Under the pieces are notes generated by a model that made no database searches, had not been told where the DNA came from, and saw only the letters and a program-made list of their open reading frames with translations. This document shows positions 4,154-26,109 of a stretch of DNA of 49,721 bases, piece by piece; position 1 is the stretch's first letter; every line of letters starts with the position of its first letter. Source of the DNA: an uncultured Oscillospiraceae bacterium (GTDB lineage: Bacteria; Bacillota; Clostridia; Oscillospirales; Oscillospiraceae). The translations under genes and the position numbers were made by a program. The stretch spans positions 1 through 49,721 of the forward strand of contig CAZFGL010000002.1 of assembly GCA_964518645.1 (NCBI GenBank). The letters run 5' to 3'.

Positions 4154-5878
4154 TTACTTGGCAAGATAGCGATCCAGCGCATTCTGCTGCTGCTGGATGC
4201 AGGTGTCGATTCCCATGGACTTGATGTTTGCCACATACTCGTCCCAGATGGAGATATCCTCCTCACCCATGATGATCTGGAGGGTGATCTGAGAGACATA
4301 GGTGGAAATATCGTCATACACTGCGCTGAAGGTGGTGGATTCATCGGTGTTCATGCTGGCACCGGTGGGGATGGAGTAGGCATCGTCTGCCATAGACCAG
4401 ATCTCGCCAGCCTCCCACTGTGCATCGGTGAACTCCGCATACATCCGGTAGGGATCCTCCACACCGATCAGGCTGAAGGTGGTGTACTTGGTCAGAGCCA
4501 GCATGGTGGGCATATCCGGGTTGTGCAGGATCAGGTCGCCCAGCTTGGGCTCCCCGTTTTCGTCAAAGTCAAAGGTCTCACCCTCCACGCCGTAGTTGGA
4601 GAGGATCTGGCCTTCCTCGGAGTATACGAAGTCCGCCCAGCGGGCAGCGATCTCCGGATGCTCACAGGCCGTGGAAATACAGTAGCCACCGGCGGCAGAG
4701 GGGCCGCGGTCAGTCCCGAAATGGGTAATATCGCCCTTGACCTCCACAGGGTCATAAGCGCCCACCAGATTCAGGGTGCTGTTTTCGCCTACAACAGAAT
4801 TGTAGCGCTCGGAAATATCGGTGATATTGGCACCAAACACGCCCATCTGATCTCCGGTCACGAGATCATCGGGAGGCATGGTGTTGCTCTCGGTATGGGA
4901 GATAAAATCCTTGTAAATCAGGCCCTCGGAATACCACTTTGCCATGGTTTCCAGGTACTTCTTATACCCCTCTTCCATGGGGCCGTATTTTACTTCGCCC
5001 TCAACCTGATACAGGGGCTTTGCATTGTTCACCAGAGAACCGTTGATGCCAAAGCCGGAGGCAAAGAAATTGCCCTGATAGCTGCCGCAGTTGCTGAGCA
5101 TCATGGGTGCGGAGGCACCCATGTCGTTTTTGAATGCGGTAAGTACATCATAGTATTCATCATAGGTCTGGGGACGCTCCATACCCAATTCATCCAGCCA
5201 GTCCTGCCGGATCAGCAGACCATAGTCTGGGAAACCGGGGTCATGCTTCAAAATCATAAACTGATAGCGGTTGCCCATATCGGAAACGGAATCCACAAGG
5301 AACTCGTCCTCGCTGTACAGAGCAGCCTTATAATTGGGCATCCAGGTGTCAATGAGATCATCAATGGCGATAATGACCTCGTCCTCCCATGCGGTATCCA
5401 GGCCGCCCACATAGTTGGTGTCCACATCGTGGATCAGATCCCGGTAATCACCGGTGGCAACCATCAGATTGAACTGCTCTGCCGCCATCTCCGCATTGAC
5501 CAGAGTAAACTCGGTCTTGATGCCGGTGATTCTCTCCATTTCCTGGAAGAACATGGTGTCGGAGTAGCTTTCAAAGAATGCAGAGAAGAAGGGGAACCAG
5601 CCGTCCCAGATGGTCAGGACAGTCTCTTCCTCGGCAATGGGCCATACGCCTGCATTTTCATCGAAGGTGTCCTCATAGGGCGGTTCTTCCTCAGCGACGG
5701 ATTCCTCCGCTGTGGAGACCTCAACTGCTTCTACAGTCTCCTGCTCCACCGCAGGCGCTTCAGATGCCTGGGTTTCCGTTCCGGACGCAGACTGGGCAGA
5801 CTGAGCCGTGCCACCGCAGGCACACAGGCTCAGAAGCATCACCGCCACAAGGAGCAATGCCATAAGCTTTGTTTTCAT
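4154..5878 (-). CDS. Large extracellular solute-binding lipoprotein (ABC family-1 / LplA-like), paralog 1 of 4
   Basis: Track ORF 4154..5896. The TTG at 5896 lies within the RBS (AGAGGGA). ATG 5878 gives MKTKLMALLLVAVMLLSLCACGG, a signal peptide plus lipobox. An acidic S/E/A-rich linker follows, then an SBP core with the motif MAKWYSEGLIYKDF shared by all four paralogs. Confidence 0.85.
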   Translation of the reverse strand: MKTKLMALLLVAVMLLSLCACGGTAQSAQSASGTETQASEAPAVEQETVEAVEVSTAEESVAEEEPPYEDTFDENAGVWPIAEEETVLTIWDGWFPFFSAFFESYSDTMFFQEMERITGIKTEFTLVNAEMAAEQFNLMVATGDYRDLIHDVDTNYVGGLDTAWEDEVIIAIDDLIDTWMPNYKAALYSEDEFLVDSVSDMGNRYQFMILKHDPGFPDYGLLIRQDWLDELGMERPQTYDEYYDVLTAFKNDMGASAPMMLSNCGSYQGNFFASGFGINGSLVNNAKPLYQVEGEVKYGPMEEGYKKYLETMAKWYSEGLIYKDFISHTESNTMPPDDLVTGDQMGVFGANITDISERYNSVVGENSTLNLVGAYDPVEVKGDITHFGTDRGPSAAGGYCISTACEHPEIAARWADFVYSEEGQILSNYGVEGETFDFDENGEPKLGDLILHNPDMPTMLALTKYTTFSLIGVEDPYRMYAEFTDAQWEAGEIWSMADDAYSIPTGASMNTDESTTFSAVYDDISTYVSQITLQIIMGEEDISIWDEYVANIKSMGIDTCIQQQQNALDRYLAK

Positions 5879-5936
5879 ATTTATCCCTCTTTTCAAGTCG
5901 TTTCAGGGTTTCCGGTTTCACAGAATCCCTGATTGT

Positions 5937-5965
5937 ATCATACCCTTTCTTTTATCTTCGGCCAA
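5937..5965 (-). promoter_or_regulatory. Putative promoter of solute-binding protein 1
   Basis: The minus strand reads TTGGCC (5965..5960), a 17-nt spacer, then TATGAT (5942..5937). It lies between the upstream terminator (6019..6058) and the gene. Motif match only. Confidence 0.3.
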
Positions 5966-6018
5966 GTATCTAATATAGTAAAATGATCATTTTGTGTGGT
6001 CTTGTTACAACTTTTTCG

Positions 6019-6058
6019 TAAAAAGAAGCAGCACACTGCCGTGTACTGCTTCCTCTTT
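6019..6058 (-). terminator. Rho-independent terminator downstream of solute-binding protein 2
   Basis: 12-bp stem with one mismatch, GAAGCAGCACAC (6025..6036) / GTGTACTGCTTC (6041..6052), and a 4-nt loop. The A-run 6020..6024 gives a U-run on the minus strand. Confidence 0.75.
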
Positions 6059-6090
6059 TTCCGGCTTTCACCGGAACACATGTTCAGAAT

Positions 6091-7845
6091 TTACTTTGCG
6101 CCGTGGAACTCGTCATACAGTTCCTGCACACCCGTAAGCCGGTCGGCATACTGATCTACACCCAGCTGACCCAGTTCCATAAACCGCTGAAGGCCACAGC
6201 CCTCCAGCTGATCCAGGAACTCCTGCCAGTCTGTATCCAGATCCTTGTCACCCACAATGAACTTCACCACATATTCCTGATAAACGGTGCTGATGTCCAC
6301 CTGTGCGGTGTAATACTCCGTGGCCTGATCCGTGGTCATGGTAGAAAGAGCCGCTGCGTCTCTGGTGGTCGTCCAAAGCTCTGCCGCCTCCAGCTGGGCT
6401 TCGGAGTAGGATGCCAGATACCGTTCGTTATTGTACAGGAAGGGGCCGTCCTTAAAGAAGTAATAGGTCATCATAATATTGGCGCCCAGATTGTACTCAT
6501 CCTGGGTGATCAGTTCGGTAAACACATGCTTACCGCCATCATCCAGCGTATAGGTCTCCCCTTCGATGCCCCAGTTACAGAAATCGTAGCCATCTTCCGT
6601 ATAGAATTCGTTGAACACTGCACAGAGGGTACCAATGTCCTCACAGGCAGTGGTCACGGAGAATGCACCCATACCGTCTACGCCGCTGTTGTTGGGTGCC
6701 TTGCCGAACTTCTGCTCGTCCCCATGATTCAGCACAGGCCAGGTGATGGGAGAAATGACCGCCTCGGGGACTGTCCCGGTGAGCACATCCTGCTGTGCCT
6801 CCATATAGGACACATAGGTAAAGTATACACCCACATCCCCTGCGGTAATCAGGCTGTTATCCGGGTAATCCGTACCGCCCTGGCTGAGGAAGTCAGGGTA
6901 GATCAGCCCCTCCTGATACCACTGGTGCATCATGGTAAGGTAATCCTTGAAGCCGTCCTCCTTTACGGAGAACTTGAAGGTTCCGTCCTCTACCCAGGTG
7001 GGGAAGCCCGCACCGCCGGCATACTCCGCCACGCCGTAACCACCGGACAGATCTCCGGGAACGCCGCCATAGGCAGTGATCCACAGGGTGGCGTCAAATT
7101 CTTCTTTGAATTTTACCAGCACGTCATGGAGCTCATCATAGGTCTCCGGTGCTTCCAGCCCCAGCTTGTCCAGATAATCCTGACGGATCACCGGGCCGTA
7201 GTCTGCCCGGGCTGCCGGGTCGTTGATGCCATAAAAGGCGGTCAGATTATACTCTGTGGAATATGCCGCCGCCACATTGTTCACATCCTGGAACAGGGTG
7301 TTCATATAATCAGGCATATACTCGGCATATTCTGCAATGTTGGTAAGTACCTCTTCCTCCACAGCGCCGTCCACGCCGCCGGAATAGCTGAGGCTGCCTA
7401 CGATAATGTCGGTGTAATCACCGGAGGCGATCATCAGGTTCTGCTTATCCGTGGAATCCAGGAACGAATACAGATCCACCGTAATGTCTGCACCGGTACG
7501 CTCCTCCAGCCATTTGGCCCAGCCCAGTTCGCTGCCGTCATCGGAAATCAGTGCAGAACCGGTCAGGGACGGGGTCGTGGACATGCTGACGGATATGGGG
7601 AACGCCTCTTCCAGCGGAAAATCCACCAGATGGACGATCTCCGGGGGAGCGGTCTCCTCTTCCGCAAGGGACACCTCAGATCCCTCCTCCACTGTCTCAG
7701 GGGCAGTGGTCTCCGGAAGGGTGCTTTCCGGCACACTGGCGCTTACGGTGCCGGATGCCTGCACCGATTCATTCCCGCCGCAGGCGGAAAACAGGGTCAC
7801 CAGCATGGTCAGTACCAGCAATACGGCCAGGTGTTTCTTTTTCAT
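6091..7845 (-). CDS. Large extracellular solute-binding lipoprotein, paralog 2 of 4
   Basis: Track ORF 6091..8043 is over-extended. The internal ATG at 7845, preceded by AAGGAGGAAG, gives MKKKHLAVLLVLTMLVTLFSACGG (signal peptide plus lipobox). The core contains MHQWYQEGLIYPDF. The extension would overlap the upstream gene and its hairpin. Confidence 0.85.
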   Translation of the reverse strand: MKKKHLAVLLVLTMLVTLFSACGGNESVQASGTVSASVPESTLPETTAPETVEEGSEVSLAEEETAPPEIVHLVDFPLEEAFPISVSMSTTPSLTGSALISDDGSELGWAKWLEERTGADITVDLYSFLDSTDKQNLMIASGDYTDIIVGSLSYSGGVDGAVEEEVLTNIAEYAEYMPDYMNTLFQDVNNVAAAYSTEYNLTAFYGINDPAARADYGPVIRQDYLDKLGLEAPETYDELHDVLVKFKEEFDATLWITAYGGVPGDLSGGYGVAEYAGGAGFPTWVEDGTFKFSVKEDGFKDYLTMMHQWYQEGLIYPDFLSQGGTDYPDNSLITAGDVGVYFTYVSYMEAQQDVLTGTVPEAVISPITWPVLNHGDEQKFGKAPNNSGVDGMGAFSVTTACEDIGTLCAVFNEFYTEDGYDFCNWGIEGETYTLDDGGKHVFTELITQDEYNLGANIMMTYYFFKDGPFLYNNERYLASYSEAQLEAAELWTTTRDAAALSTMTTDQATEYYTAQVDISTVYQEYVVKFIVGDKDLDTDWQEFLDQLEGCGLQRFMELGQLGVDQYADRLTGVQELYDEFHGAK

Positions 7846-7901
7846 ACAACTTCCTCCTTTAATTTGTGGTCTGCTAAGGAAGCTGCAAGTTTGATACCAG
7901 A

Positions 7902-7936: not shown

Positions 7937-7943
7937 GTTGGTT

Positions 7944-9926
7944 TTATCGAATCTGTGCCGCTGCGGACAGTGCCCCCCGGGTACAGGTGTGGATATTCCC
8001 CACCCGGTTGCAATCGCCAATGGCAAAGAACTGATCCGCACAATCCCGGAAGGAGATCGCCTGCTCCTGCAAGGCCTTCATACCGCCGCAGGCCACTACG
8101 CTGTCTCCGGTGACTGTTTTTTCTACACCTTCGTCCAGATAGGTCACACTGTTGGGGGTAATCCCCATGGTTTTCACCTTTGTCAGCGCCTTCAGCTGCT
8201 TCTGCTCCCGGAGGGCATGCTCCAGCCCGCTGTAATAATGGGAGAACTGGGCATCCGTTGCCAGCCGGTCCCGGCGGGTCAGAATGGTCACCTGATGGCC
8301 GTTCTGGGCCAGATACAGGGCCGTCTCCGTGGCGGATTCGGAACCGCCCACCACGATCACATGGCTGCCCAGCTCATTTTCCCGACCGAACACATCCACA
8401 TGGTTCCAGATGCCCTCAGCATCGGCACCCTTTACATCGGGCTTCTTCGGCACTGCCCCCACCGCTGCGATCACAGCGTCGTAGCCCAGAGAGCGGATCC
8501 CCTCCGGGGTGGCCTCTGTCCCCAGATGTACTACGACCCCCTGCTTCTCCAGCTGCCGTTCCAGATACTCTTTGTGACGGCGGATGGGCCATTTGAAGGA
8601 GGCATAGTCCCCGTGCAGCATCTGACCGCCCAGACGGTTTGCCTTTTCATAAAGATCCACCTGATGTCCCCGCTTGCGACACTCCATCGCCGCCCACATG
8701 CCCGCAGGGCCACCGCCGATCACCGCCACCTTCCGGCTTTCTCCCGGGGCAGGCAGCATCCGCTCGATCTTGTGTTCCAGACCCATGGCAGGGTTTACAT
8801 AACAAATAACATTATCCCGACAGTGGCAGCGGTTGCACAGCAGACAGGGCACCACATCCTCACCTCTGCCCTCCCGCAGCTTATCTCCGTACTCGGGATC
8901 ACAGATAAAGGCTCTTGCCACGGCGATCATATCCGCCTTACCCTGGGCGATGCACGCCTCCATCAATTCGGGATCCTGAAAACCTCCGTTTGGGGCGGTC
9001 ACAATGTTAACACCCGCAGCCTTGATTGCAGCAGAATACCGAATAGTCAGAGGCTCCTGAGCCCCAGTATAATTCAGTCCTGTGGGGTGTGCCAGATCCA
9101 TATCCGGAGCACGGAGCTGCAAAATATCCACAAGGCCTTCCCAGCCTTTGCAGTAGCCCACAAAATCCTCCAGCGTATAGCCCCCCAGTTCTTCTCCGGA
9201 GACCTGTGCCTCAATGAGGAAGTCCTGTCCGCACAGTTCCTTGACCCGGCGGAATACACTTCTGGTCAGTTCCAGCTTGTCCCCGTATTTGTCTGTCCGC
9301 CGGTTGTGTACCGGAGAGAGAGACTTTGCCAGCAGGGAGTTTCCGTAGGACATATAGAAGCACACCATGTCAAAGCCCATCTGACAGAAGGCATAGGCCT
9401 TCTGCGCCAGCAGCTCCACCAGATGATCCAGTTCCTCGGTGCTTGCCACATGGGTCTTGACCGGAGGCCCCATCATGGGTCTGCCTGCGGGCATTTCCGA
9501 AAGAGTCAGATTCCGGGGCTCGATCCCCATCATGGATGCGGATGCCAGAGAGCCATAAAAATGGATCTCATCGGTCATATGGGAATAGTACAGCTTACAC
9601 CCCCGGGTCTCCGCCTCCAGATTGCCCATACCCGGGCCGCCGAAGCTGCCCACGCCCCACACATCCGGCCCCCCGGGGCCACCGGGCCCCGGGCCCATTC
9701 CTCCGGAAGTATCCCCGAAGAAGGGGTCGCTTTTCCAGTCTGCGCCCTGACAGGTGACCACCGCAGCTCCGGAACGTGCCAGCTGTGCCATGTGAGAGAT
9801 CATTGCCTCACCTGGGTAATTTTCGTCCCCCTGAAAGGCCCCCGATACACTCCGTGTCACCAGCAGGCGATTTTTTAAAAGTCTTCCACCCACCAGAATG
9901 GGGGAAAGCAGATTTGCGTAACGCAT
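7944..9926 (-). CDS. NADH:flavin oxidoreductase of the 2,4-dienoyl-CoA reductase / BaiCD-BaiH-like family (OYE-type barrel + Cys cluster + FAD/NAD(P) domain), divergent copy 1
   Basis: Track ORF 7944..10043. ATG 9926 follows AAAGGAG and gives MRYANLLSPILVGGRLLKNRLLV (typical OYE start). Cys cluster PCLLCNRCHCRDNVIC. Rossmann motif KVAVIGGGPAGMWAAMECRKRGHQVDLYEKANRLGGQ, plus a second dinucleotide fold HVIVVGGSESATE. It carries a G/P-rich insertion and a non-canonical YMSYGNSLL in place of the H-x-AHG-type motif seen in copy 2. Confidence 0.85.
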   Translation of the reverse strand: MRYANLLSPILVGGRLLKNRLLVTRSVSGAFQGDENYPGEAMISHMAQLARSGAAVVTCQGADWKSDPFFGDTSGGMGPGPGGPGGPDVWGVGSFGGPGMGNLEAETRGCKLYYSHMTDEIHFYGSLASASMMGIEPRNLTLSEMPAGRPMMGPPVKTHVASTEELDHLVELLAQKAYAFCQMGFDMVCFYMSYGNSLLAKSLSPVHNRRTDKYGDKLELTRSVFRRVKELCGQDFLIEAQVSGEELGGYTLEDFVGYCKGWEGLVDILQLRAPDMDLAHPTGLNYTGAQEPLTIRYSAAIKAAGVNIVTAPNGGFQDPELMEACIAQGKADMIAVARAFICDPEYGDKLREGRGEDVVPCLLCNRCHCRDNVICYVNPAMGLEHKIERMLPAPGESRKVAVIGGGPAGMWAAMECRKRGHQVDLYEKANRLGGQMLHGDYASFKWPIRRHKEYLERQLEKQGVVVHLGTEATPEGIRSLGYDAVIAAVGAVPKKPDVKGADAEGIWNHVDVFGRENELGSHVIVVGGSESATETALYLAQNGHQVTILTRRDRLATDAQFSHYYSGLEHALREQKQLKALTKVKTMGITPNSVTYLDEGVEKTVTGDSVVACGGMKALQEQAISFRDCADQFFAIGDCNRVGNIHTCTRGALSAAAQIR

Positions 9927-9994: not shown

Positions 9995-11647
9995 TTAACG
10001 GGAATTGTAGCGATCCAGTGCAGTCTGCTTGATCTCGATGCACTCTTCGATGCCCATGGTCTTCAGAGTTTCCACAAAGGCGTCGTATTCGTCCATGGAG
10101 GTCACGCCGATGACAAAATTGGGCAGCTGCTCGGAAATATAGGTGTCAATGTCGTTGTACTTGCTGTAGAACTGCTCGCTCTCAGCGATGGTCATTTCCG
10201 CAAAGGAGGGGTAGATATTGGCGTTGTCATTGTGATCCGCCCATACGGAACGGGACTTCAGCTGCTGCTCGTTATAGGTGTTGTCCATACGGGTGTTGTC
10301 GTTGACAAAACCGGCGCAGTTGAACAGGGCGTACAGGGCAATGGCCTGATTGAAGCTGATGTCCGGGTTGTTGGCAACCAGATCGGTAAACTGGGGCTTG
10401 CCGTCCACCATCTCATAGCTGAGGCCCTCGATGCCGTAGTTGGCCATCAGGGTACCCTGCTCGGAATACCAGAAATCACACCACTTTGCAGCCAGTTCCG
10501 GATTCTCGCAGTTGCCGGAGATGGCCCACTCAGCGCCTCTGCCTACCTTGCTGGTAATTTCGCTGAAGTGAAGCTGCTGTCCCTCTTCCAGAACAGGCAG
10601 ACCAATGGGTTCTGCGTTCACGGCAAAGTAGCCGTAGGCATTGGATGAGTTCCGCCACAGGCCGGTCTGTGCGTTCTGCACGTCATCGGTGGTGTCGGGC
10701 TTATCCACACCGTCTGCCTGGGTTGCGAAGTCCTGATAAATCAGTCCCTCGGAATACCACTTGCTGATCATAGTCAGATAATCCTTCATGCCGTCCTCCA
10801 GGAAGCCAAACTTCACCTGGCCGTCCTCCTGATAGAAATCAGCAATCACGCCGTATGCTGCGGTCAGATCCGCAGTGGAAGCGGTATTGTCCACCCACAG
10901 GGGCGCCTTTGCCCCCAGTTCATCCCGGAAGGCCACCAGAGTATCATACCAGTCGTCCATGGTAACAGGCATCTCTCTGCCCACTGCATCCAGCATATCC
11001 ACGTTGATCCAGTGACCGCCGCGGATATATACATTCTCGTCATTGATGGTCATAAAGGAAGGGATATTGCCCTCGTTGGTCACAACGCTCTTGGCCACCT
11101 CTTCATCCTCATGAATGATTCCCCAGTAGTTGGGGCATACGGTGTCGATCAGTTCGGTCAGGTCGATAATTGTCTCTTCCTCAATGGCCTGATCGTAAGT
11201 ACCGGTGTAGAAGTTGCCAAAGTCACAGATGATGTCCGTGCAGTCGCCGCCGGCCAGCATCAGGGAGAACTGCTCAGAACCGTTGATAATGGAAACGCCG
11301 GTAATGTCCAGTTCAATGCCGGTAAGCTCCGTCATCTCCACAAACAGAGGCTTTTCCTCAATGGCAATGAAATTGGTCAACCAGGGGGGATAGGTGTACC
11401 ACACAGAAAGGGTGGCATCGTGGTCAGCAAAGGGCAGTTCCATGGGTGCAGGGCCTACAGGCTCCTCCGGTACGGAGGCTACCTGGGTCTCGGTCTCCTG
11501 CTCGGAGGCCGGTGCCACAGATTCTTCCTCCACTGCGGGTGCACTCTCGGTCTGGCTGACAGCAGTCTCAGATTCCTGAGTACCGCCGCAGGCTGCCATA
11601 CCAAGGATCAGGCACAGGGTCAGCAACAGGCAAACAAGTCTCTTCAT
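9995..11647 (-). CDS. Large extracellular solute-binding lipoprotein, paralog 3 of 4
   Basis: 550 aa. MKRLVCLLLTLCLILGMAACGG (lipobox), an acidic linker, and a core with ISKWYSEGLIYQDF. GGAGG RBS. It begins 24 nt after the type-C NTF2 gene. Confidence 0.9.
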   Translation of the reverse strand: MKRLVCLLLTLCLILGMAACGGTQESETAVSQTESAPAVEEESVAPASEQETETQVASVPEEPVGPAPMELPFADHDATLSVWYTYPPWLTNFIAIEEKPLFVEMTELTGIELDITGVSIINGSEQFSLMLAGGDCTDIICDFGNFYTGTYDQAIEEETIIDLTELIDTVCPNYWGIIHEDEEVAKSVVTNEGNIPSFMTINDENVYIRGGHWINVDMLDAVGREMPVTMDDWYDTLVAFRDELGAKAPLWVDNTASTADLTAAYGVIADFYQEDGQVKFGFLEDGMKDYLTMISKWYSEGLIYQDFATQADGVDKPDTTDDVQNAQTGLWRNSSNAYGYFAVNAEPIGLPVLEEGQQLHFSEITSKVGRGAEWAISGNCENPELAAKWCDFWYSEQGTLMANYGIEGLSYEMVDGKPQFTDLVANNPDISFNQAIALYALFNCAGFVNDNTRMDNTYNEQQLKSRSVWADHNDNANIYPSFAEMTIAESEQFYSKYNDIDTYISEQLPNFVIGVTSMDEYDAFVETLKTMGIEECIEIKQTALDRYNSR

Positions 11648-17759: not shown

Positions 17760-17795
17760 GCGTGCTGCAATGTATTTTGCGGCACGCCCTTTTTT
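17760..17795 (+). terminator. Rho-independent terminator of the AraC pair
   Basis: Stem GCGTGCTGC (17760..17768) / GCGGCACGC (17779..17787) with one G-U pair. CC then TTTTTT (17790..17795) follows. Confidence 0.7.
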
Positions 17796-17835: not shown

Positions 17836-17864
17836 TTTACTTTGTTTTTTGTGGTTTTTATAAT
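17836..17864 (+). promoter_or_regulatory. Putative promoter of the plus-strand NTF2 A2-B2-C2(-SBP4) operon
   Basis: TTTACT (17836..17841), a 17-nt spacer, then TATAAT (17859..17864). The ~85-nt leader contains a GC stem GGGCAGGG/CCCTG(T)CCC (17876..17895). TTCCTGG lies just upstream (17824..17830). Motif match only. Confidence 0.45.
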
Positions 17865-18693: not shown

Positions 18694-19467
18694 ATGAATT
18701 ACTACGAGGATAAGATATTCACCGATGACGAACTGATCGTCCGGGTCATGGATAAGGAAGAGATCAAAAAGCTGATGGCAAAGCGGGCCTTCTACTATGC
18801 CAACAATCAGCGGAGAAGAGAGCTTGACGAGCTTTGGGTAAAAACCCCGGAGTTCACCCGGAGTGCATCCTACGGCCGGAACTGGGGCTACTATGTGGGC
18901 ATGGACTCCATCGCTGACTATTATGTGGTGCAGCATACCAGACGGCAGTATGAGGCGCTGGAGGCCATCCATGCAAACGACCCCACCGTTGCGGTAAACA
19001 ATCTGAATCTGGGGCTGGGCTGCAGCGCATTCCATACCGTCACCACCCCCATGCTGTACATCGCCGGAGACGGTGCCACTGCCCGTGGTCTGTGGTACTC
19101 TGCCGGACAGGAGACCATTATGCAGGCAGACGGCACTGCAAAGGCCTACTGGACCATGGACAACATGGCCGCAGACTTTGTAAAGGAAAACGGCCAGTGG
19201 AAGATCTGGCATCTGGTGGTTTGCAGCGACTTCTTCGTGGAGGCCGGTACCGACTTCAAGACCGGCACACTGGAGCCTCTTACCGGGCCGGATCCCTTCC
19301 GGGACGAGTTCGGCACCCCGGACATTCCCATGACCGTTCACAATCCCCGGTATAATCTCTCCGACAACTATCCCCCCATGCCTCTGCCCTACGACACTTA
19401 TACGGTTCAGGGTTCCCTGGCTCCTGAGGGGCATCCCAACTATAAAAAGGAGGCTGTGAAAAGATGA
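18694..19467 (+). CDS. NTF2/SnoaL_4-like protein, type B, copy 2
   Basis: 257 aa with a GAGGAGG RBS, starting 2 nt after the A2 stop. Blocks EEIKKLMAKRAFYYANNQRRR..ELW, AFHTVTTPMLYIAGDGATARGLWYS and ENGQWKIWHLV. The tail contains MPLPYDTY. Collinear with B1. Confidence 0.85.
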   Translation: MNYYEDKIFTDDELIVRVMDKEEIKKLMAKRAFYYANNQRRRELDELWVKTPEFTRSASYGRNWGYYVGMDSIADYYVVQHTRRQYEALEAIHANDPTVAVNNLNLGLGCSAFHTVTTPMLYIAGDGATARGLWYSAGQETIMQADGTAKAYWTMDNMAADFVKENGQWKIWHLVVCSDFFVEAGTDFKTGTLEPLTGPDPFRDEFGTPDIPMTVHNPRYNLSDNYPPMPLPYDTYTVQGSLAPEGHPNYKKEAVKR

Positions 19468-20300
19468 AAACCCATCTGAGCCTGCACCAGCGCATCCATA
19501 ATGCAGACGGAAGCCAGCAGATCGAAAATCTGAAGGCCATCCACGCCTATACCCACGCCAGAAACTGGCCTGTGGAAGAATGGGACAACATCTGGGATCT
19601 TTCCGACGACTGTTCCTGGGCCCACGGCTTCGGCCGGTGGAGAGGCGGTTTTAAGGTATATCTCAACTCCGTTACCGAGTGGGACATTCCCACCTTCACC
19701 AACTATATGAAGCTGTATAAGCTCTATCCCGATGTAATGGGTATGGATCCCCGTCCCCTCAACTTCTCCCCGGTTCACAATCTTTCCAGCGAGATTATCG
19801 AGGTTGCCGACGACGGAAAATCCGCCCGGGGCGCATTTCTCACCCCCGGTAACATTTATGAGTATCTCAAGCCCCAGCAGCGCCGCCGGGCCATCTTCAT
19901 GTGGGAGCGCTACGGTGCCGACTTCATCTGCGACGAAAACGGCCACTGGAAATATCTCCACGAGCATGTGTGCCCGGACTTCCAGGGCAATTATGACGAT
20001 GTAAACTGGGGTCTGGAAGCGTATCAGGTGGCCACCGATCCCAATCGCCGGAATTCCGCCGCTCCCCCGCCGGATGCAGATTCCGCCGGACATCCCGATG
20101 GGGTAAACGGCCCCGCTCCCGAGGGGCCTCCGCCGGATTCCGCCGGCCCCAGAGATATGGCACTGGATGACCCCGGCCCCCTGCACCGGGAATATGAGTT
20201 CCTGATGCCCATTCAGAACACCTGTCCCTGGCCGGAACCCTATGGGACACTGGACAACAATAACACCTATACCCCCTTTATCGGTAAGGATCGGCTGTAA
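19464..20300 (+). CDS. NTF2/SnoaL-like protein, type C, copy 2
   Basis: 278 aa with an AGGAGG RBS. Its ATG overlaps the B2 stop (ATGA). Blocks IENLKAIHAYTH, VHNLSSEIIEVADDGKSARGAFLTPG and NGHWKYLHEHVCPD. A P/G/D-rich tail ends CPWPEPYGTLDNNNTY.... Collinear with C1. Confidence 0.85.
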   Translation: MKTHLSLHQRIHNADGSQQIENLKAIHAYTHARNWPVEEWDNIWDLSDDCSWAHGFGRWRGGFKVYLNSVTEWDIPTFTNYMKLYKLYPDVMGMDPRPLNFSPVHNLSSEIIEVADDGKSARGAFLTPGNIYEYLKPQQRRRAIFMWERYGADFICDENGHWKYLHEHVCPDFQGNYDDVNWGLEAYQVATDPNRRNSAAPPPDADSAGHPDGVNGPAPEGPPPDSAGPRDMALDDPGPLHREYEFLMPIQNTCPWPEPYGTLDNNNTYTPFIGKDRL

Positions 20301-20455: not shown

Positions 20456-22150
20456 ATGAAAAAACTTCTTGCACTCCTGCTGACCCTGTGTTTGATTTTC
20501 GGGCTGGCTGCCTGTGGCGGAACCACCGATTCCTCCGCCCCCACCTCTGCTGTTTCTGTTGAAGCTGCCTCCGAAGCTCCTGAAACAGAAGTTTCTGCTG
20601 AAGCCTCTGTCTCTGAGGCCGGAGCATCTGTCCCGGAGGAAGTCCCGGAATCTGTCGTTGCACCTGTACCCGTCACCCTCCCCATTGTGGACGAGCCTGT
20701 CACCTACACCATCTGGTACAACGAGCCCTTTACCGAGTACATTGACAACCCGGCGGAGGATGTGGCGATTTTCCGGCTCCTTGCGGAAAAGACCAATATC
20801 TCTCTGGACTTCCACCTTACCACCATTGATGCCGCCAGCGATCAGTTCCAACTTCTGTTTGCGGCAGATTCCCTGCCCAACATCATCACCGATGCCATGG
20901 ACTATTACGCTGGCTCCATTGATGATGCCGTATTCGAGGATGAGTTCCTCTACAACTACGCCGATGATCTGGCCGATATGACCAACTACAACGCCGTTCT
21001 GAATCAGTACATCGAGGCAAAAAAGACCATTACCAGCGCCGACTCCGGTGCCATGGTTTCCTTCCCCGAGCTGTACAAGGACGTAGGCGATGAGGACGGC
21101 TATATGATCCGCAAGGATTATCTGGATCTCACCGGCATGGACGTACCCACCACCTACGACGAGATGCACGACGTGCTTGCAGCCATTCATGAAAAGAACG
21201 GATCCGGTCTGGATCTCACCTCCTCCGGCGGCGATGCACTGCTGGGTGCAGGCTTCGGCATCAACTGCGGACTGGACTCCTCTGACCTTGCCGGCTGGTA
21301 TGTGGTTGACAATGAGGTAAGAATGGGCATCCTTCAGCCCGAGTTCAGGGATTATCTGGAGATGGTAAAGCAGTGGTACTCTGAGGGCATCATCTATGCA
21401 GATTTTATCAACTCCGATAACGGCGACCTCACCAACCTGTTCACCGGTGCTGTTTCCATCACCATGAAGGTGCCTGAGATCATTGACGTGGCTGCTGCTG
21501 TGGTAGGGGCTGAAATGATCCCCATGAAGGCCCCCGTAAAGCAGGCGGGAGACACGATCACCATCTGCGGTGGCGAAAGCTCCTGCCTGATGGATCCCCA
21601 CACCTGGTCCATCAATGTGCAGACCGAAAACATTGATCCCCTGCTGAAGATGATCGACTACATGTACTCCCCTGAAGCCACCGACATGATGAACTACGGC
21701 GAAGAGGGCGTTTCCTTTGAATATGACACCGAGGGCAATCCCCAGTTCACTGCTCTGGTGCTGGACAACCCCGACGATTACGACTATGCCCACGCTGCAT
21801 ATTTCTACGCCACCTCCAACCGCACCCGTCTGCCCTTCGTCTCCGACTACGCCCGCTGCTTCTCCGACTACTCCGAGGCAGCCATGGAGGCCGTGGAGAT
21901 CTACACCGACGACTGCACCCACGAGAATGACTACCCCAACGGGGCAATCATGAACACCGAGCAGACCCAGCAGTACAATACCGTTGCAGCAGATATCTGC
22001 ACCTACATTTCCGAGCATGTTCTCCAGTTCATCTATGGTCAGGAAGACATGGCTCAGTGGGACGCCTTCATTGATACCCTGTATGAAATGGGCATCGAGA
22101 CTGCCATCGAAGCCAAGCAGGCAGCCTATGAGGATTACCTGAACACCTAA
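20456..22150 (+). CDS. Large extracellular solute-binding lipoprotein, paralog 4 of 4
   Basis: 564 aa with an AAGGAG RBS. MKKLLALLLTLCLIFGLAACGG (lipobox), an acidic linker, and a core with VKQWYSEGIIYADF. Same position relative to its NTF2 cassette as SBP3. Confidence 0.9.
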   Translation: MKKLLALLLTLCLIFGLAACGGTTDSSAPTSAVSVEAASEAPETEVSAEASVSEAGASVPEEVPESVVAPVPVTLPIVDEPVTYTIWYNEPFTEYIDNPAEDVAIFRLLAEKTNISLDFHLTTIDAASDQFQLLFAADSLPNIITDAMDYYAGSIDDAVFEDEFLYNYADDLADMTNYNAVLNQYIEAKKTITSADSGAMVSFPELYKDVGDEDGYMIRKDYLDLTGMDVPTTYDEMHDVLAAIHEKNGSGLDLTSSGGDALLGAGFGINCGLDSSDLAGWYVVDNEVRMGILQPEFRDYLEMVKQWYSEGIIYADFINSDNGDLTNLFTGAVSITMKVPEIIDVAAAVVGAEMIPMKAPVKQAGDTITICGGESSCLMDPHTWSINVQTENIDPLLKMIDYMYSPEATDMMNYGEEGVSFEYDTEGNPQFTALVLDNPDDYDYAHAAYFYATSNRTRLPFVSDYARCFSDYSEAAMEAVEIYTDDCTHENDYPNGAIMNTEQTQQYNTVAADICTYISEHVLQFIYGQEDMAQWDAFIDTLYEMGIETAIEAKQAAYEDYLNT

Positions 22151-22159
22151 CATACGAAA

Positions 22160-22202: not shown

Positions 22203-22205
22203 GTT

Positions 22206-22574
22206 TTATTCAGCGGGAATGATCTCGATCTGGTATCCGTCCGGATCCTTGATGAAATACACAGGCTCCGTCTCCGGATCCCGGCAGATCACCCCCATCT
22301 TTTCGTGAAGGGCGTGGGCCTCTTCCATGTTTTCCACGGAAAATGCCACATGGAACTCATTGTCTCCCAAAGCATAGCCGCCGATTCTGCCGGGAACATA
22401 GCCCACCTCCAGCTGATGGGCAGACTCCCCGTCGGAGAGGAACACCAGTGTAGCGTCCATGTCGCTGGGATGCATCACCTTTGCGGTGGTCAATCCCAGT
22501 GCCTCCTCATAGAACTTCAGAGACCGTTCCAGATCAGAAACAAATACACAGTTGTGGGCAAACCGGAATTTCAT
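22206..22574 (-). CDS. VOC (glyoxalase I / epimerase-fold) family protein
   Basis: 122 aa. FAHNCVFVSDLERSLKFYEEALGL...HVAFSVENMEEAHALHEKMG...DPDGYQIEII is the classic paired beta-alpha-beta-beta-beta VOC pattern. GGAGGAG RBS. It starts 15 nt after the SDR stop. Confidence 0.85.
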   Translation of the reverse strand: MKFRFAHNCVFVSDLERSLKFYEEALGLTTAKVMHPSDMDATLVFLSDGESAHQLEVGYVPGRIGGYALGDNEFHVAFSVENMEEAHALHEKMGVICRDPETEPVYFIKDPDGYQIEIIPAE

Positions 22575-22589
22575 TCTGGTCTCCTCCCC

Positions 22590-23369
22590 TTACATCTGCA
22601 TACCGCCGCAAACAGGCAGTGCACAACCGGTGATATGGCCGGACATGTTGGAGCAGAGGAACATCACGGCATCCGCCACATCGGAGGTGGTGCCCAGCTT
22701 GCCCATGGGGATCACGTTCTGCATCAGGAAATCCACATCCTGTGCGCCGGAGGCCTTGCTGTCTGCCATCAGATTGGTGCCATCGGTGGGGCCGGGGCAG
22801 ATTACATTGACACGGATGCCGTTCTTTGCGTTTTCCACAGCAGCGGTCTGGGTAATTGCGATTACGCCTGCCTTGGAGGGGCCGTAAGCACCAAATCCGG
22901 GAGCCATGTTCAGTCCGCCGATGGAGGAGGTGTTTACAATGGCACCGCCGCCCTGCTTGTTCATCTGGATCATCTCATACTTCAGGCAGTGGAACATGCC
23001 GGTCAGGTTGGTGGAGATCACCTTCAGCCAGTCACTCTCAGTCACCTCAGTCAGAGGAGCAAAGGGAATATTCACGCCGTCAGCACCGCATCCGGCATTG
23101 TTGAAGGCATAGTCCAGTGCGCCGAAGGTCTGGACTGTGGTCTCAATGGCATTCTTGACAGATTCCTCGTCGGCCACATCGCAGGGAACGAAGATGGCTT
23201 CGCCGCCGGCCTCTTCCACCATTTTTACAGTCTCAGCGGCTGCTGCGGGCTTTCTTGCGGCAACTGCCACCTTGCAGCCCAGAGATCCGAAACGGACTGC
23301 CACTGCACGGCCCATACCGGAAGCTGCACCGGTAACAAACAGGACTTTACCCTTCATCTCTTCAAACAT
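22590..23369 (-). CDS. SDR family NAD(P)-dependent oxidoreductase
   Basis: 259 aa. TGAASGMGRA (TGxxxGxG), NNAG, NTSS and YGPSKAG (YxxxK) motifs. AAAGGAAG RBS. Confidence 0.9.
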   Translation of the reverse strand: MFEEMKGKVLFVTGAASGMGRAVAVRFGSLGCKVAVAARKPAAAAETVKMVEEAGGEAIFVPCDVADEESVKNAIETTVQTFGALDYAFNNAGCGADGVNIPFAPLTEVTESDWLKVISTNLTGMFHCLKYEMIQMNKQGGGAIVNTSSIGGLNMAPGFGAYGPSKAGVIAITQTAAVENAKNGIRVNVICPGPTDGTNLMADSKASGAQDVDFLMQNVIPMGKLGTTSDVADAVMFLCSNMSGHITGCALPVCGGMQM

Positions 23370-23406
23370 AATAATCTTCCTTTCCGATTATAAAAGTATT
23401 TTATTT

Positions 23407-25356
23407 TTAGATACGCATGGCTGCGTGATAAGCCTCATGATTTGCACGATAGTAAGTACCGCCCTTTGCGGTGCAGTCGCCCACCATGATAACATCCATG
23501 CTGCCGTATTTCTGAAGAAGCATCTTACCCAGACCGTCATCCGGCTTGACACCCAGCGCGTTTACCACGCTGTCAGCGGGGAAGAACCGATCTTCTCCAT
23601 TTTCGTCCAGGGTCTTTACGCCGTTTTCGATGGACTGGATCCGCTGAGAGCCATAGAGTGCAACCCCTCTTTCCTCCAGCTGCGCCAGCAGGTCAGCCTT
23701 GTTGAAGATGGGCATTTCCATTACAAACTGCTCTCTGGGAAGCATATCCACCACGGAAACCTGCTTACCTTCCATGGAAAGTGCCAGTGCGCATTCCAGA
23801 CCGGTGATACCGCCGCCGCAAACCACTACACGCTCCCCGCAGGAGACCTCATGGGCATCCACGTCCCGGACAGGCAGGGCATGCTCAATTCCGGGGATGG
23901 GCGGAGTCATATATACGGAGCCGGTGGCCACAATGATGGCATCCGGATTCACCGTCTCGATCAGTTCCGGGGTCACCTCGGTGTTCAGCACCACTTCAGC
24001 ACCACACTCCATGGTCTCCCGAACGTCCCAGGCCACATATTCCCGCATCAGCTGCTTAAAGGGTACCAGTGCAGCGTCATTGAGCAGGCCACCCAGCCGG
24101 TCGGACTTTTCATACAGCGTGGCTTTATGGCCCCGCTTCACCAGCGTCTGGGCCGCCATCATACCTGCCGGGCCACCGCCGATAACCATAACATTTTTCC
24201 GCTGTGCCTCAGGCACCTTTTCGATCTCGCCGTAGATGCCGCACCGGGGATTGATCGCACAGCTCATGGCCGTACCCCAGGTGTTGGCGTTGCCGCACAG
24301 GTCACAACGGGTGCAGGGACGAACCTTATCCGCCTCACCTGCCAGAGACTTCCGGACAATATCTCCGTCTGCCATAAAGCTCTTGGCCATGGCCACAATA
24401 TCCGCCTTGCCGGAGGCAATGATCTCTTCCGCTTCCGCAAGGGAGGTAATCATACCCACCACCGCAACTGGAATGTGCAGCCGCTGCTTTACGATCTCGG
24501 AATATCCGGTGTTCAGGGGCTTGTGGGGTTCACGGAAATAGGTGGGGATGGTGTACCGGGCGGAGAGGTGGAAAATGGAGCCCTGAGACACATGCATAAT
24601 ATCCACATACTCCTGAGCCAGTTCCATAAAGGCAAGGGATTCTTCAAACTCCAGTCCTCCGGGGATGCCCTCGGTGGCGGATACACGCAGTTCAATCACC
24701 ATGTCATTGCCCACAGCCTCACGGACAGCCTTCAGCACCTCCAGAGGATACTTCCGACGGTTTTCCGGGCTTCCGCCGTACTCATCCGTACGGACATTGG
24801 AATCCGGAGACAGCCACTGCGCCAGGAAGTTGTTATGGGCACAGTGGAGCATGACCATCCGGAATCCGGCATGCTTGCAGCGCACAGCGCAGTCCACATA
24901 CCGCTCCTTCAGATAGTCCATATCCTCCCGGGTCATGGTGCGCACATTATCCTCGGGATCCAGCGGGCGCTCCGCAGAAACCACCGCGGTGGGCGTTCCA
25001 TCCTTCGGTGCCCGGTTGCCCCGTCCGGCATATGCCAGTTCTGCGCTCAGTTCAGCCCCGTTTTTCCGGCACTGCTCTACCAGAGCATTCATACCATGGA
25101 TACAGTCGTCATCACAGACGTTCATTTCACACAGCCAGTGAGAGGTATTGTCATGGGTAACAGGGGTATCGCCCACAGTGACCCAGCCTGCACCGGTCTG
25201 TGCCTGCCACTCCATAAAGTCCATCATATCCTGGCTCATGGTACCGTCGGCATTACATTTGAGCACCACAGTGGGGGAATACTCCAACCGGTTTTTTAAT
25301 GTCAGCCCCCGGATGGTAATGGGCTGGAACAGATGGGGATAGGCATTTGACTTCAT
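23407..25356 (-). CDS. NADH:flavin oxidoreductase of the 2,4-dienoyl-CoA reductase / BaiCD-BaiH / daidzein-reductase-like family, copy 2
   Basis: 649 aa. FQPITIRGLTLKNRL, LHCAHNNFLAQWLSP..N.RTDEYGGSPENRRKY, and the 4Fe-4S-type motif C-TR-C-DL-C-x11-C (RPCTRCDLCGNANTWGTAMSC). Rossmann motif VMVIGGGPAGMMAAQTLVKRGHKATLYEKSDRLGG, plus a second fold VVVCGGGITGLECA. Confidence 0.9.
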   Translation of the reverse strand: MKSNAYPHLFQPITIRGLTLKNRLEYSPTVVLKCNADGTMSQDMMDFMEWQAQTGAGWVTVGDTPVTHDNTSHWLCEMNVCDDDCIHGMNALVEQCRKNGAELSAELAYAGRGNRAPKDGTPTAVVSAERPLDPEDNVRTMTREDMDYLKERYVDCAVRCKHAGFRMVMLHCAHNNFLAQWLSPDSNVRTDEYGGSPENRRKYPLEVLKAVREAVGNDMVIELRVSATEGIPGGLEFEESLAFMELAQEYVDIMHVSQGSIFHLSARYTIPTYFREPHKPLNTGYSEIVKQRLHIPVAVVGMITSLAEAEEIIASGKADIVAMAKSFMADGDIVRKSLAGEADKVRPCTRCDLCGNANTWGTAMSCAINPRCGIYGEIEKVPEAQRKNVMVIGGGPAGMMAAQTLVKRGHKATLYEKSDRLGGLLNDAALVPFKQLMREYVAWDVRETMECGAEVVLNTEVTPELIETVNPDAIIVATGSVYMTPPIPGIEHALPVRDVDAHEVSCGERVVVCGGGITGLECALALSMEGKQVSVVDMLPREQFVMEMPIFNKADLLAQLEERGVALYGSQRIQSIENGVKTLDENGEDRFFPADSVVNALGVKPDDGLGKMLLQKYGSMDVIMVGDCTAKGGTYYRANHEAYHAAMRI

Positions 25357-25404
25357 TCAAGTTCCTCCTAAAGGACGCCATGCGTCCAGTTTTATTTCCC
25401 CTAT

Positions 25405-25433
25405 ATCATACTACATCCATTTGAAAAGTGGAA
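25405..25433 (-). promoter_or_regulatory. Putative promoter of oxidoreductase2-SDR-VOC operon
   Basis: The minus strand reads TTCCAC (25433..25428), a 17-nt spacer, then TATGAT (25410..25405). A small GGACGC/GCGTCC hairpin (25373..25387) sits just upstream of the RBS. Motif match only. Confidence 0.35.
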
Positions 25434-25491
25434 ATCTTATTTCTTTCTCTAATTATAATCCGCAGATTATAACCCTCCGGATCTCCGGCGC

Positions 25492-26109
25492 TTACCGGAT
25501 GAAATTGGTGGCCACATGAGGCTCCTGCGCCGGAAGCCCGAACTGCTCCCGCCCCAGTGCAATGCTCTTCATCAAAAAGGCCATATTTCTTGCAAGGGTG
25601 CGCATGGTCTGAAGTCCCTCTTCATCCTCCGCTGCCTGACCGGGTGCGCCCCCATGAACGCTGTTCCAGTACTGGCTGGAGACAATGGGCATACCGCTGA
25701 TGGTAAAGTATTTATTCAGCTGGTCAAAGGTGGAGGAACATCCGCCCCGTCTTGCCACCGCCACAGAAGCACCCACCTTCATGGTCTTGTCAAACCGGGT
25801 GCTGTAGAACAGCCGGTCAAGAACCGAAATCAGGGTGCCATTGGCAGAGGCATAATACACGGGACTGCCTACCACAAGGCCGTCCGCCCCTTCCAGCTTG
25901 GGTGCAAGCTCATTGACCACATCGTCCAAAACACACGCCCCTTTCCGGAAGCATCCCCCGCAGGCCAGGCAGCCCCGGACATTCTGATTGCCCACATGGA
26001 TCAGTTCCGTCTCTATCCCCTGCTTTTCCAGTTCCTTTCTGACTTCATCCAGCGCCAGAAAGGTATTTCCTCCGGCTTTGGGACTTCCGTTGAGCAGCAG
26101 AACTTTCAT
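25492..26109 (-). CDS. Flavodoxin-like fold NAD(P)H-dependent FMN reductase / iron-sulfur flavoprotein-like protein
   Basis: Track ORF 25492..26397 is over-extended into ung. ATG 26109 follows AGGAAAGGAG and gives MKVLLLNGSPKAGGNTF.... It has a CxxCxxCx5C motif (GCLACGGCFRKGAC) and GSPVYYASANG. Confidence 0.8.
   Translation of the reverse strand: MKVLLLNGSPKAGGNTFLALDEVRKELEKQGIETELIHVGNQNVRGCLACGGCFRKGACVLDDVVNELAPKLEGADGLVVGSPVYYASANGTLISVLDRLFYSTRFDKTMKVGASVAVARRGGCSSTFDQLNKYFTISGMPIVSSQYWNSVHGGAPGQAAEDEEGLQTMRTLARNMAFLMKSIALGREQFGLPAQEPHVATNFIR

Follow-up and report, generated by a model that had tools for sequence, protein, structure and literature searches.

A stretch of 49,721 nucleotides from an uncultured Oscillospiraceae bacterium (contig CAZFGL010000002.1 of assembly GCA_964518645.1; the whole stretch is called the window in the following) harbors between positions 4154 and 26109 a cluster of 18 genes. 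The cluster is built around two copies of a fixed unit of three paralogous genes, N1-N2-N3, which code proteins of the nuclear transport factor 2 (NTF2) fold, and each copy is followed by a gene for a lipoprotein solute-binding protein (SBP). We read the cluster, with a probability of about one half, as several inducible modules that belong to one recurrent type, which only uncultured Oscillospiraceae of gut and rumen would possess. In such modules, each of which would contain some of the following parts, a surface lipoprotein binding protein would capture a small molecule, a cytoplasmic complex of the three paralogous NTF2-fold proteins would act on it as a heteromeric lyase or dehydratase, and a Fe-S flavin reductase, sometimes together with a short-chain dehydrogenase/reductase (SDR), would reduce the product, each operon being under its own regulation. 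The gene set was taken from six-frame open reading frames (ORFs) with their translations and from Pfam scans of all 18 genes. All genes that an earlier note on this DNA had listed were recovered, at positions that were identical or differed by a few codons, including the six NTF2-like proteins, a Rossmann-like orphan, the four paralogous lipoprotein SBPs and two AraC regulators. The unusual architecture claimed there was also borne out. Its key structure, two paralogous N1-N2-N3-SBP cassettes, had been overlooked at that time.

All-against-all BLASTP comparison resolved the six NTF2-like proteins into two paralogous sets of three. N1a (13354-14082, minus strand, 242 aa) and N1b (17951-18691, plus strand, 246 aa) are 42% identical, N2a (12572-13339, minus, 255 aa) and N2b (18694-19467, plus, 257 aa) 36%, and N3a (11672-12559, minus, 295 aa) and N3b (19464-20300, plus, 278 aa) 41%; the three types are related to one another as well, more distantly. 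Four of the six match the Pfam family SnoaL_4 weakly (N2b 9e-10, N1b 9e-8, N2a 6.9e-8 and, below the cut-off, N1a 1.3e-4), and the Pfam-silent proteins N3a and N3b are joined to the others by BLASTP. The genes of each trio are tightly packed, the start of N3b overlapping the stop of N2b (ATGA, 19464-19467) and the other gaps measuring 2-15 nt. The window proteins were compared with the six-frame ORFs of 82 related loci (numbered L001 onwards), where 82 N1-N2-N3 trios were found in invariable order. With sufficient flanking sequence, 70 of 77 N2-type genes have N1 upstream and N3 downstream, and the exceptions proved to be ORF-calling artefacts or low-scoring solitary paralogs. Moreover, when pairwise distances were compared among the N1, N2 and N3 proteins of 72 trios, the matrices correlated with r = 0.89-0.93, or 0.72-0.86 when only divergent pairs are considered, hence the three subunits co-evolve. 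N3 is the most conserved of them, its orthologs being 92-96% identical compared to 74-87% for N1 and N2.

The family is rare. An exhaustive HMMER search of 1.84 billion representative sequences with a profile of N3a and N3b returned 467 matches at E <= 1e-3 and 63 at E <= 1e-30; none of ten sampled N3-family clusters carried a name, and all were metagenomic. Given this rarity, the presence of two full trios on a 9-kb stretch is far beyond chance. A word-indexed search with N2b found 334 relatives, which are nameless or annotated as 'nuclear transport factor 2 family protein', and in the GTDB species genomes a profile scan yielded 126 loci; 80 of them were retained. NCBIfam holds no matching model for N1b, N3b, the orphan or SBP4. 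The carriers are nearly all metagenome-assembled genomes (MAGs) of uncultured Oscillospiraceae, Clostridiales or Eubacteriales from the human gut (including Hadza), rumen and deer, and several of these MAGs hold at least four separate loci of the trio family. Some cassette-bearing contigs are found in bins with Bacteroidota or Chloroflexota labels (L005, L029, L058 and L078, labelled Barnesiella intestinihominis; L012, Bacteroidaceae; L033 and L079, Flexilinea sp.), which most likely reflects binning contamination and not true occurrence in these phyla. Solitary NTF2-like genes of the N1 or N2 kind (~245-250 aa) were also observed near trios, namely at 14616-15362 in L005, 12684-13430 in L006, 18493-19224 in L011 and 6216-6971 in L065.

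The structural relationships of the trio point to LdpA, which we take to be a homo-oligomeric, cofactorless lyase of sphingomonads that acts on a lignin-derived diarylpropane. When family profiles were searched against the PDB, the only convincing matches of N2 were LdpA entries (8abt, 5.5e-4), and N3 matched LdpA alone (8abv, 4.4e-5). An AlphaFold 2 (AF2) model of N2b (pLDDT 84, pTM 0.85) shows a cone-shaped alpha+beta NTF2 core with a C-terminal extension of ~70 residues, and its top seven Foldseek matches are NaLdpA and SpLdpA entries (3e-9 to 1.9e-7; TM-scores of 0.52-0.56 by query and 0.55-0.62 by target). These are followed by LinA, an uncharacterised NTF2-like protein, the bile-acid dehydratase BaiE (ranks 16-20, 2e-6 to 7e-6, query TM-score 0.44-0.47), a fungal gallate decarboxylase and scytalone-dehydratase-like proteins. 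The titles of the LdpA entries in the PDB mention erythro- and threo-DGPD as bound ligands, resveratrol as a bound product analogue, and an H97Q variant (8abu). In the HMM alignment, H105 of N3 coincides exactly with His97 of LdpA, the residue mutated in 8abu, and W147-E148-x-Y150-x-x-D153 of N3 coincides with the LdpA motif WES..YEND; H114 of N2 likewise aligns with His97. Among ~240 jointly aligned sequences the His97-equivalent position is His in 100% of N3 and 85% of N2 proteins, and in N1 it is mostly Lys, otherwise variable.

N3 stands out by 20 invariant, mostly polar residues, among them H27, H31, H105, E113, D117, E148, R149, Y150, D153, H166, D172 and H241, and N3a carries the family's invariant His/Glu/Asp/Tyr set as well. 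The invariant polar residues H27, H31, H54, R58, D95, R97, E148, R149, Y150, E167, C170 and H241 of N3 are absent from N1 and N2. All three types share a C-terminal tail of the pattern P-x-P-Y-x-T...Y, which in N3 is attached to the core through a Gly/Pro-rich linker whose length differs widely among homologues, from short to roughly 100 residues. Such Gly/Pro-rich stretches (GGPGGPGG, GMPGG) were noticed at varying positions in N3 proteins, in reductases related to RED1 (see below) and in a surface protein encoded at 26956-30216 of the window, and they occur also in L009, L057, L058, L066 and L075; they could represent lineage-specific slippage-prone sequence or a functional flexible tether. 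Judged from these matches, N2 and N3 are remote homologues of the LdpA-type SnoaL_4 lyases (8abt, 8abu, 8abv and 8abw), with which they share the SnoaL_4-type NTF2 fold, a length of ~250 aa, the long C-terminal extension and the conserved His. The systems differ in that LdpA is a single gene product of aerobic Proteobacteria, whereas the trio comprises three ordered, co-evolving paralogs of anaerobic Firmicutes, in which N3 has additional invariant His residues and the Gly/Pro-rich tether, and which are accompanied by binding proteins and reductases.

The NTF2-fold relatives of the trio are known to catalyze cofactor-independent eliminations. LdpA forms a quinone methide and then deformylates, thereby converting 1,2-diarylpropane-1,3-diols to stilbenes; BaiE and scytalone dehydratase dehydrate their substrates and LinA removes HCl. 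LdpA, LinA, BaiE and scytalone dehydratase are all trimers. A precedent for a heteromeric arrangement exists in the phenazine synthesis of Pseudomonas, where the side-by-side paralogous NTF2/KSI-fold genes of PhzA and PhzB encode a hetero-oligomer with only one fully catalytic subunit. This pair is likened to the trio by description only; it has two instead of three subunits of ~160 aa each and serves as a biosynthetic condensation enzyme. From the LdpA-like fold, the His pattern, the invariant N3 residues, the trimeric relatives and the PhzA/PhzB precedent, we infer that N1, N2 and N3 may assemble into a heterotrimer, in which N3 would provide the main active site, N2 a second, often degenerate one and N1 a structural subunit. 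The reaction of the complex would need no cofactor and, as in its structural relatives, would be an elimination or isomerisation.

Alternatively, the trio might be non-enzymatic, acting as a ligand-binding, sequestering or chaperoning complex or as an accessory of the reductases, comparable to the NTF2-fold beta subunits of Rieske dioxygenases. The NTF2 fold is indeed often non-catalytic, the catalytic-type His is missing in N1 and variable in N2, and binding proteins and transporters are frequent beside trios. We regard this explanation as improbable, because N3 retains about 20 invariant and mostly polar residues, including the His aligned to His97 and the WExY..D motif of LdpA, because N3 is the most constrained subunit, and because most trios lack a nearby reductase to which they could be accessory.

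The genomic surroundings of the trios are recurrent but not uniform. Within 3 kb of the 82 trios, SBP genes were found in 36 cases, two-domain reductase genes in 26, either of them in 53 and AraC genes in 16. A Pfam census within 5 kb furthermore recorded regulators of the LysR (18) and PucR-type HTH_30 (11) families, Opp-type permeases with SBP_bac_5, TRAP transporters, MATE proteins, ABC exporters and FAD_binding_2 flavoproteins. The picture is that of many small modules, each with a one-component regulator, an uptake or efflux part and a trio, often accompanied by a reductase. Synteny was followed in the closest MAGs, which share 76-81% nucleotide identity with the window. The order AraC2-N1b-N2b-N3b-SBP4 is kept in L005-L010, and N1b-N2b-N3b-SBP4 in L011-L013 with other genes upstream. 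Cassette a is kept in L006 and L008, and AraC1 adjoins either cassette a or the genes of the orphan, SBP3 and the reductase RED1. In L011 and L012, the latter three genes lie directly 5' of N1b-N2b-N3b-SBP4 on one strand. In L001-L003 (3424-7579) the neighbours of a trio-plus-reductase module code for a TRAP transporter, a PucR-type regulator and a protein of the Amidohydro_2 family; since Amidohydro_2 includes aromatic-acid decarboxylases, an aromatic acid is hinted at as substrate of this paralog. Weakly recognizable right-handed beta-helix proteins of 609-850 aa are encoded beside trios or RED1-like genes at 1512-3341 in L001, 13707-15536 in L004, 14053-16005 in L037 and 2539-5091 in L085, and none of this kind was found in the window.

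In the window, the cluster is more aptly viewed as a row of three or four adjoining operons than as a single pathway. Each N1-N2-N3 cassette is followed by an SBP gene and the two cassettes diverge from the AraC pair. On the minus strand, transcription would proceed in the order orphan, N1a, N2a, N3a, SBP3, RED1, SBP2 and SBP1, with gaps of 12-24 nt among the first five genes and of 68, 98 and 212 nt thereafter; a promoter-like site lies 5' of SBP1 at 5965-5937. The first gene of this operon, for the orphan (14098-14949, minus, 283 aa), is preceded by AGGAGG and separated from AraC1 by a divergent, AT-rich control region of 193 bp (14950-15142). On the plus strand follow AraC1 (15143-16504, 453 aa, soluble; HTH_18 5e-17, GGDEF_2 2e-5), AraC2 (16516-17751, 411 aa; HTH_18 1.4e-18), N1b, N2b, N3b and SBP4. 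Between the AraC genes and cassette b stand a strong terminator-like hairpin (17760-17787, plus strand), whose 11-bp stem has 7 GC pairs and is followed by a T-run, and then a promoter-like site (17836-17864, plus strand, TTTACT-17-TATAAT, 10 of 12 matches). In our reading AraC1 would control the operon of cassette a, comprising the orphan, N1a, N2a, N3a, SBP3, RED1 and perhaps SBP2 and SBP1, and AraC2 would control N1b, N2b, N3b and SBP4.

The same complete gene order was found in contigs from five sequencing runs, representing no fewer than five independent assemblies, with matching calls by an independent gene caller, hence the cluster is real and stable in the species. For the same reason an assembly chimera was rejected. 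Other MAGs hold different combinations of the modules. The term 'island' used in the earlier note is apt only in the sense of a gene cluster, because the base composition (GC content and skew) is uniform and the same as in the flanks, and no tRNA, integrase or mobile-element genes were found at the locus. Together with the housekeeping flanks, these observations led us to reject a horizontally acquired island.

The reductases RED1 (7944-9926, minus strand, 660 aa) and RED2 (23407-25356, minus, 649 aa) are only 29% identical in BLASTP. Both combine an Oxidored_FMN barrel, a four-Cys 4Fe-4S motif and a Pyr_redox_2 domain for FAD and NAD(P)H. RED2 is the canonical two-domain Fe-S flavin ene-reductase (Oxidored_FMN 1e-55 plus Pyr_redox_2). 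RED1 is atypical, as its Oxidored_FMN match covers only the C-terminal half of the barrel (Pyr_redox_2 4e-24) and a Gly/Pro-rich insert is present at about residues 70-100. The closest PDB relatives of both are an enzyme abbreviated NCR (6qkg), which is presumably 2-naphthoyl-CoA reductase, and then the 2,4-dienoyl-CoA reductase FadH of E. coli (DCR, 1ps9). RED1 aligns in full length to 6qkg at 4.8e-56, and RED2 matches NCR at 1.9e-63 and DCR at 4.7e-58. RED1 and RED2 have their FMN barrel, 4Fe-4S motif and FAD/NAD(P)H domain in common with NCR and FadH; nevertheless, the similarity is distant over ~650 aa and the trio cluster contains no CoA-activating gene.

The reductases near trios fall into two clades, which both keep the Cys motif and the sequence GGGPAGM. 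The RED2-like clade has the classical H-x-x-H pair (HCAHNNF in RED2) and the strand-5 Arg (IELRVS in RED2), and the hallmark residues of the old yellow enzyme (OYE) family are largely present in RED2. In the RED1-like clade, which carries sequences of the types YMSYGNS and IEAQVS, these are missing: the OYE Gln (part of a Q.H.GR-type motif), the His pair and the Arg are absent, although NCR and DCR possess this Gln and Arg. The Tyr of this clade aligns with a strand Tyr of NCR at the position where classical OYEs have the His pair. The FMN-phosphate loop is retained along with the Cys motif and GGGPAGM, and Gly/Pro-rich inserts occur at lineage-dependent positions. Because of the missing OYE residues, the chemistry of RED1 may differ from ordinary ene-reduction. 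Besides the window, RED1-type genes were found in L005, L011, L012, L029, L033, L039, L052, L057, L058, L066 and L083. When RED1 was used as query, its orthologs were 70-99% identical and the next relatives dropped to <=49%. One of these belongs to an AraC-SBP-reductase module without trio in L085 and another one lies beside AraC, glyoxalase-fold and MFS genes in L086, hence, by this reverse search from RED1 homologues to trios, RED1-like genes also occur outside trio loci. In the proposed modules, an activated C=C or quinone-methide product of the trio would pass to RED1 or RED2 for reduction with NAD(P)H, and the SDR would handle a carbonyl group; the benefit to the anaerobe would be an electron sink or a detoxified compound.

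The combination of enzyme classes had led the earlier note to place the cluster near the gut pathways of bile-acid 7-dehydroxylation (bai) and equol formation. Its general logic of uptake and reductive or dehydrative conversion agrees with the NTF2 fold, the Fe-S flavin reductases, the SDR, the regulators and the SBPs, whereas a specific kinship to bai and equol genes was not supported. A variant bai or equol/isoflavone pathway that acts on a steroid, bile acid or isoflavone would employ the same classes, namely two-domain Fe-S flavin reductases, an SDR, a VOC-fold protein and NTF2-fold proteins. The likeness to BaiE together with BaiCD/BaiH also extends to the order of reactions, in which an NTF2-fold dehydratase makes a conjugated enone and Fe-S flavin reductases reduce it, with an SDR alongside. 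BaiE is among the Foldseek matches of N2b (best at 2e-6), and BaiCD is the best-scoring NCBIfam model for RED2. Yet RED2 reaches only 396 bits against the BaiCD model NF041087 (cut-off 825), 361 bits against the long form of BilR, NF045599 (cut-off 750), and 168 bits against its N-terminal domain, NF045592 (cut-off 425), and the corresponding values for RED1 are 237, 237 and 76 bits; none of these scores attains even half the curated cut-off. According to these model scores, neither RED1 nor RED2 belongs to the BaiCD or BilR families. A pairing of RED2 and the flavodoxin-like gene of the cluster as BilR and BilS was rejected on the same NCBIfam scores.

Further differences concern the gene content. 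Pfam scans found no BaiB, BaiF/BaiK or BaiG genes among the 18 genes and, as had been stated before, no glycoside hydrolase, CoA ligase or permease between 4154 and 26109, hence CoA-handling genes and a bile-acid transporter are missing from the cluster; the sole CoA transferase genes of the window lie at 36.5-37.9 kb, adjoining a thiolase gene. BaiE is the product of a single gene with one NTF2 fold of ~170 aa, whereas the N proteins comprise 242-295 aa and come in fixed trios, N2b being closer to LdpA and LinA than to BaiE. The equol cluster consists of daidzein reductase, dihydrodaidzein reductase, tetrahydrodaidzein reductase (THDR) and dihydrodaidzein racemase. Three of these four enzyme classes, compared by class only, occur in one operon of the window with RED2, SDR and VOC; the difference is that a THDR-type flavoprotein (FAD_binding_2) is absent from 4154-26109 and that the VOC protein resembles glyoxalase I. 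Finally, the hosts of the trio family include rumen and deer as well as human MAGs, Hadza among them, and several paralogs per genome are found, which suggests that the substrates are diverse and probably plant compounds of the diet, not bile acids. Taken together, a bai or equol variant appears quite improbable.

SBP1 (4154-5878, minus, 574 aa; SBP_bac_1 2.9e-6, lipobox LSLCAC), SBP2 (6091-7845, minus, 584 aa; SBP_bac_8 4e-6, weak DUF3502, lipobox LFSAC), SBP3 (9995-11647, minus, 550 aa; lipobox GMAAC) and SBP4 (20456-22150, plus, 564 aa; SBP_bac_1 4e-8) are paralogs of 28-34% identity, each with a signal peptide and a lipobox. SBP3 was silent in the Pfam scan; however, it is 34% identical to SBP1 and SBP4, and SBP_bac_1 is annotated on a near-identical gene of L088. 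The best PDB relatives of SBP4 are AlgQ1/AlgQ2 and other large family-1 SBPs (~2e-20). It might therefore be argued that the region is an oligosaccharide or glycoside uptake locus, in which four AlgQ-like SBPs feed a shared ABC translocator and the redox enzymes are incidental, all the more as the solved relatives bind alginate or glycosaminoglycan-type oligosaccharides and AraC regulators are common on sugar operons. Such a locus is highly improbable in our view, because the 22 kb contain no glycoside hydrolase, lyase, sugar kinase, isomerase, permease or ATPase, and because SBPs of this class are a specific and repeated companion of trios and reductases (36 of 82 cases).

The genes of RED2, the SDR (22590-23369, minus, 259 aa; adh_short_C2 8e-61) and the VOC protein (22206-22574, minus, 122 aa; Glyoxalase 2e-13) form a separate operon, which runs towards SBP4 from the opposite side and starts with a promoter-like site of its own. 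The SDR is a generic classical member of its family, with no NCBIfam model reaching the cut-off. The VOC protein scores 84 bits against the GloA model (cut-off 165) and by its sequence resembles a small glyoxalase I; it has His/Glu/His/Glu at the positions where glyoxalase I binds its metal. The flavodoxin-like FMN_red protein (25492-26109, minus, 205 aa; FMN_red 1e-28, CX2CX2CX5C motif) is encoded 135 nt upstream of RED2, which has the promoter-like site just mentioned, and 35 nt downstream of a uracil-DNA glycosylase gene, with which it may be co-transcribed instead of belonging to the cluster; no homologue of it was found near trios in other loci.

This arrangement raises the possibility that no single pathway exists and that independent modules have come together in a recombination-prone neighbourhood beside pyrE and the MATE gene, RED2-SDR-VOC and the flavodoxin-like gene being unrelated to the trios and possibly of housekeeping or detoxifying function. 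In this regard, the relatives hold differing module combinations, L063 and L066 carry different trio and reductase sets beside a MATE gene, and in L005 and L006 a LysR gene and a solitary NTF2-like gene follow 3' of SBP4, where the window has VOC-SDR-RED2. The convergent orientation with its own promoter-like site, the small glyoxalase I-like VOC protein and the position of the flavodoxin-like gene next to that of the glycosylase fit the same explanation. On the other side, orthologs of RED2 and the SDR (77-78% nucleotide identity) recur in L061 and L065 inside a trio cluster amid NTF2-like genes, the 18-gene order is stable across five assemblies of the species, and the orphan, SBP3 and RED1 are co-directional with cassette b in L011 and L012. 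We therefore consider such independence possible but less than probable; it partly overlaps with our modular reading. The trio-free SBP-reductase modules and the limited number of trios with a reductase indicate that sub-modules recombine and that the coupling of trio and reductase is facultative. The cluster of L061 and L065 contains in addition a second SDR, an MFS transporter, a LysR regulator, a solitary SnoaL_4 gene and another reductase. Its RED2-SDR pair is 76-78% identical in nucleotides to 22588-24914 of the window, yet its trio N2 reaches only ~46% at the protein level, hence this pair is either unusually conserved or horizontally exchanged.

The orphan at the head of the cassette-a operon has only 12 homologues and no Pfam or NCBIfam match. 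In its AF2 model (pLDDT 86) the N-terminal domain is Rossmann-like, of the kind seen in flavoproteins, and the C-terminal half is beta-rich; the dinucleotide motif is degenerate and G14 alone is invariant. The flanks of the cluster are of housekeeping character, with radC, a pyrE-like phosphoribosyltransferase, MATE, proB/proA-like genes, the thiolase with CoA transferase and ABC exporters, and an Rfam scan of the window revealed no riboswitch or other RNA. MATE efflux and paired ABC exporter genes were observed near trio or reductase modules at 2642-4018, 35036-36502 and 39444-43068 of the window and in L063, L066 and L085, which may fit the handling of a toxic hydrophobic compound or be coincidence. 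The only importer genes of the window belong to an amino-acid system at 43.2-45.7 kb. The gene at 26956-30216 (minus strand) codes for a protein of ~1,086 aa without Pfam match that has an N-terminal signal or anchor, a poly-Gly/Pro segment and, at the C-terminus, a hydrophobic anchor with KRLKK behind it. The protein is probably exposed on the cell surface, and the same gene adjoins the cluster in L089.

Several points speak against the modular capture, elimination and reduction scheme. The nearest solved relatives of the SBPs bind acidic oligosaccharides, and a cognate ABC permease or ATPase for family-1 SBPs is absent in the window and near the SBPs of other loci, where the permeases beside trios are of the Opp type; hence, a shared translocator that is encoded elsewhere must be assumed. 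RED1 is devoid of the OYE Gln, His pair and Arg, such that its reaction may not be an ene-reduction at all. A reductase lies within 3 kb of only 26 of the 82 trios, modules of SBP and reductase exist without a trio (L085), and RED2-SDR-VOC is an operon of its own that converges on SBP4. The similarity to LdpA is remote, with 15-17% identity, TM-scores of 0.52-0.62 and partial profile matches, and the heterotrimer would follow from genetics and from the trimeric state of relatives. Furthermore, no sequence feature identifies the substrate. Considering the distribution in rumen, deer and Hadza MAGs, the multiplicity of paralogs and the link to LdpA, our guess is plant phenylpropanoid-type compounds.

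A more far-reaching version of the proposed scheme is speculative and rather doubtful at present. According to it, the trio family would represent a toolkit of obligate heterotrimeric NTF2 enzymes, which are present in many paralogous copies, each with a regulator and a binding protein or transporter of its own and often with an Fe-S flavin reductase, and by which uncultured Oscillospiraceae of gut and rumen cleave or reductively process plant phenolics of the lignan, stilbenoid or lignin-dimer type without oxygen. N3 would be the catalytic subunit and N1 and N2 would serve as scaffold or half-site, with the Gly/Pro-tethered C-terminal arms locking the heterotrimer. The toolkit might then be the anaerobic counterpart of the LdpA step of sphingomonads, the stilbene or quinone-methide product being reduced as an electron sink.

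The enzyme classes found in the cluster are already known, and their resemblance alone is no ground for labelling its genes as bai, BilR or equol genes. The fixed unit of three NTF2 paralogs, its tethered tails, the pattern of partnerships and the RED1 clade appear to be undescribed in the databases searched, although an earlier publication is possible. What the analysis defines is a testable unit, that is a nameless three-gene NTF2 family with a candidate catalytic subunit, a candidate residue and fixed partners. Should the heterotrimer exist, NTF2-fold enzymes would gain a quaternary design that is, to our knowledge, without precedent, and the RED1 clade would represent a re-tooled offshoot of the Fe-S flavin reductase family. 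The guts of humans and ruminants abound in uncultured Oscillospiraceae, whose small-molecule metabolism is largely unassigned. Because several copies are present per genome, the trio family may account for several of the unassigned transformations of dietary phenolics or host lipids in these bacteria.

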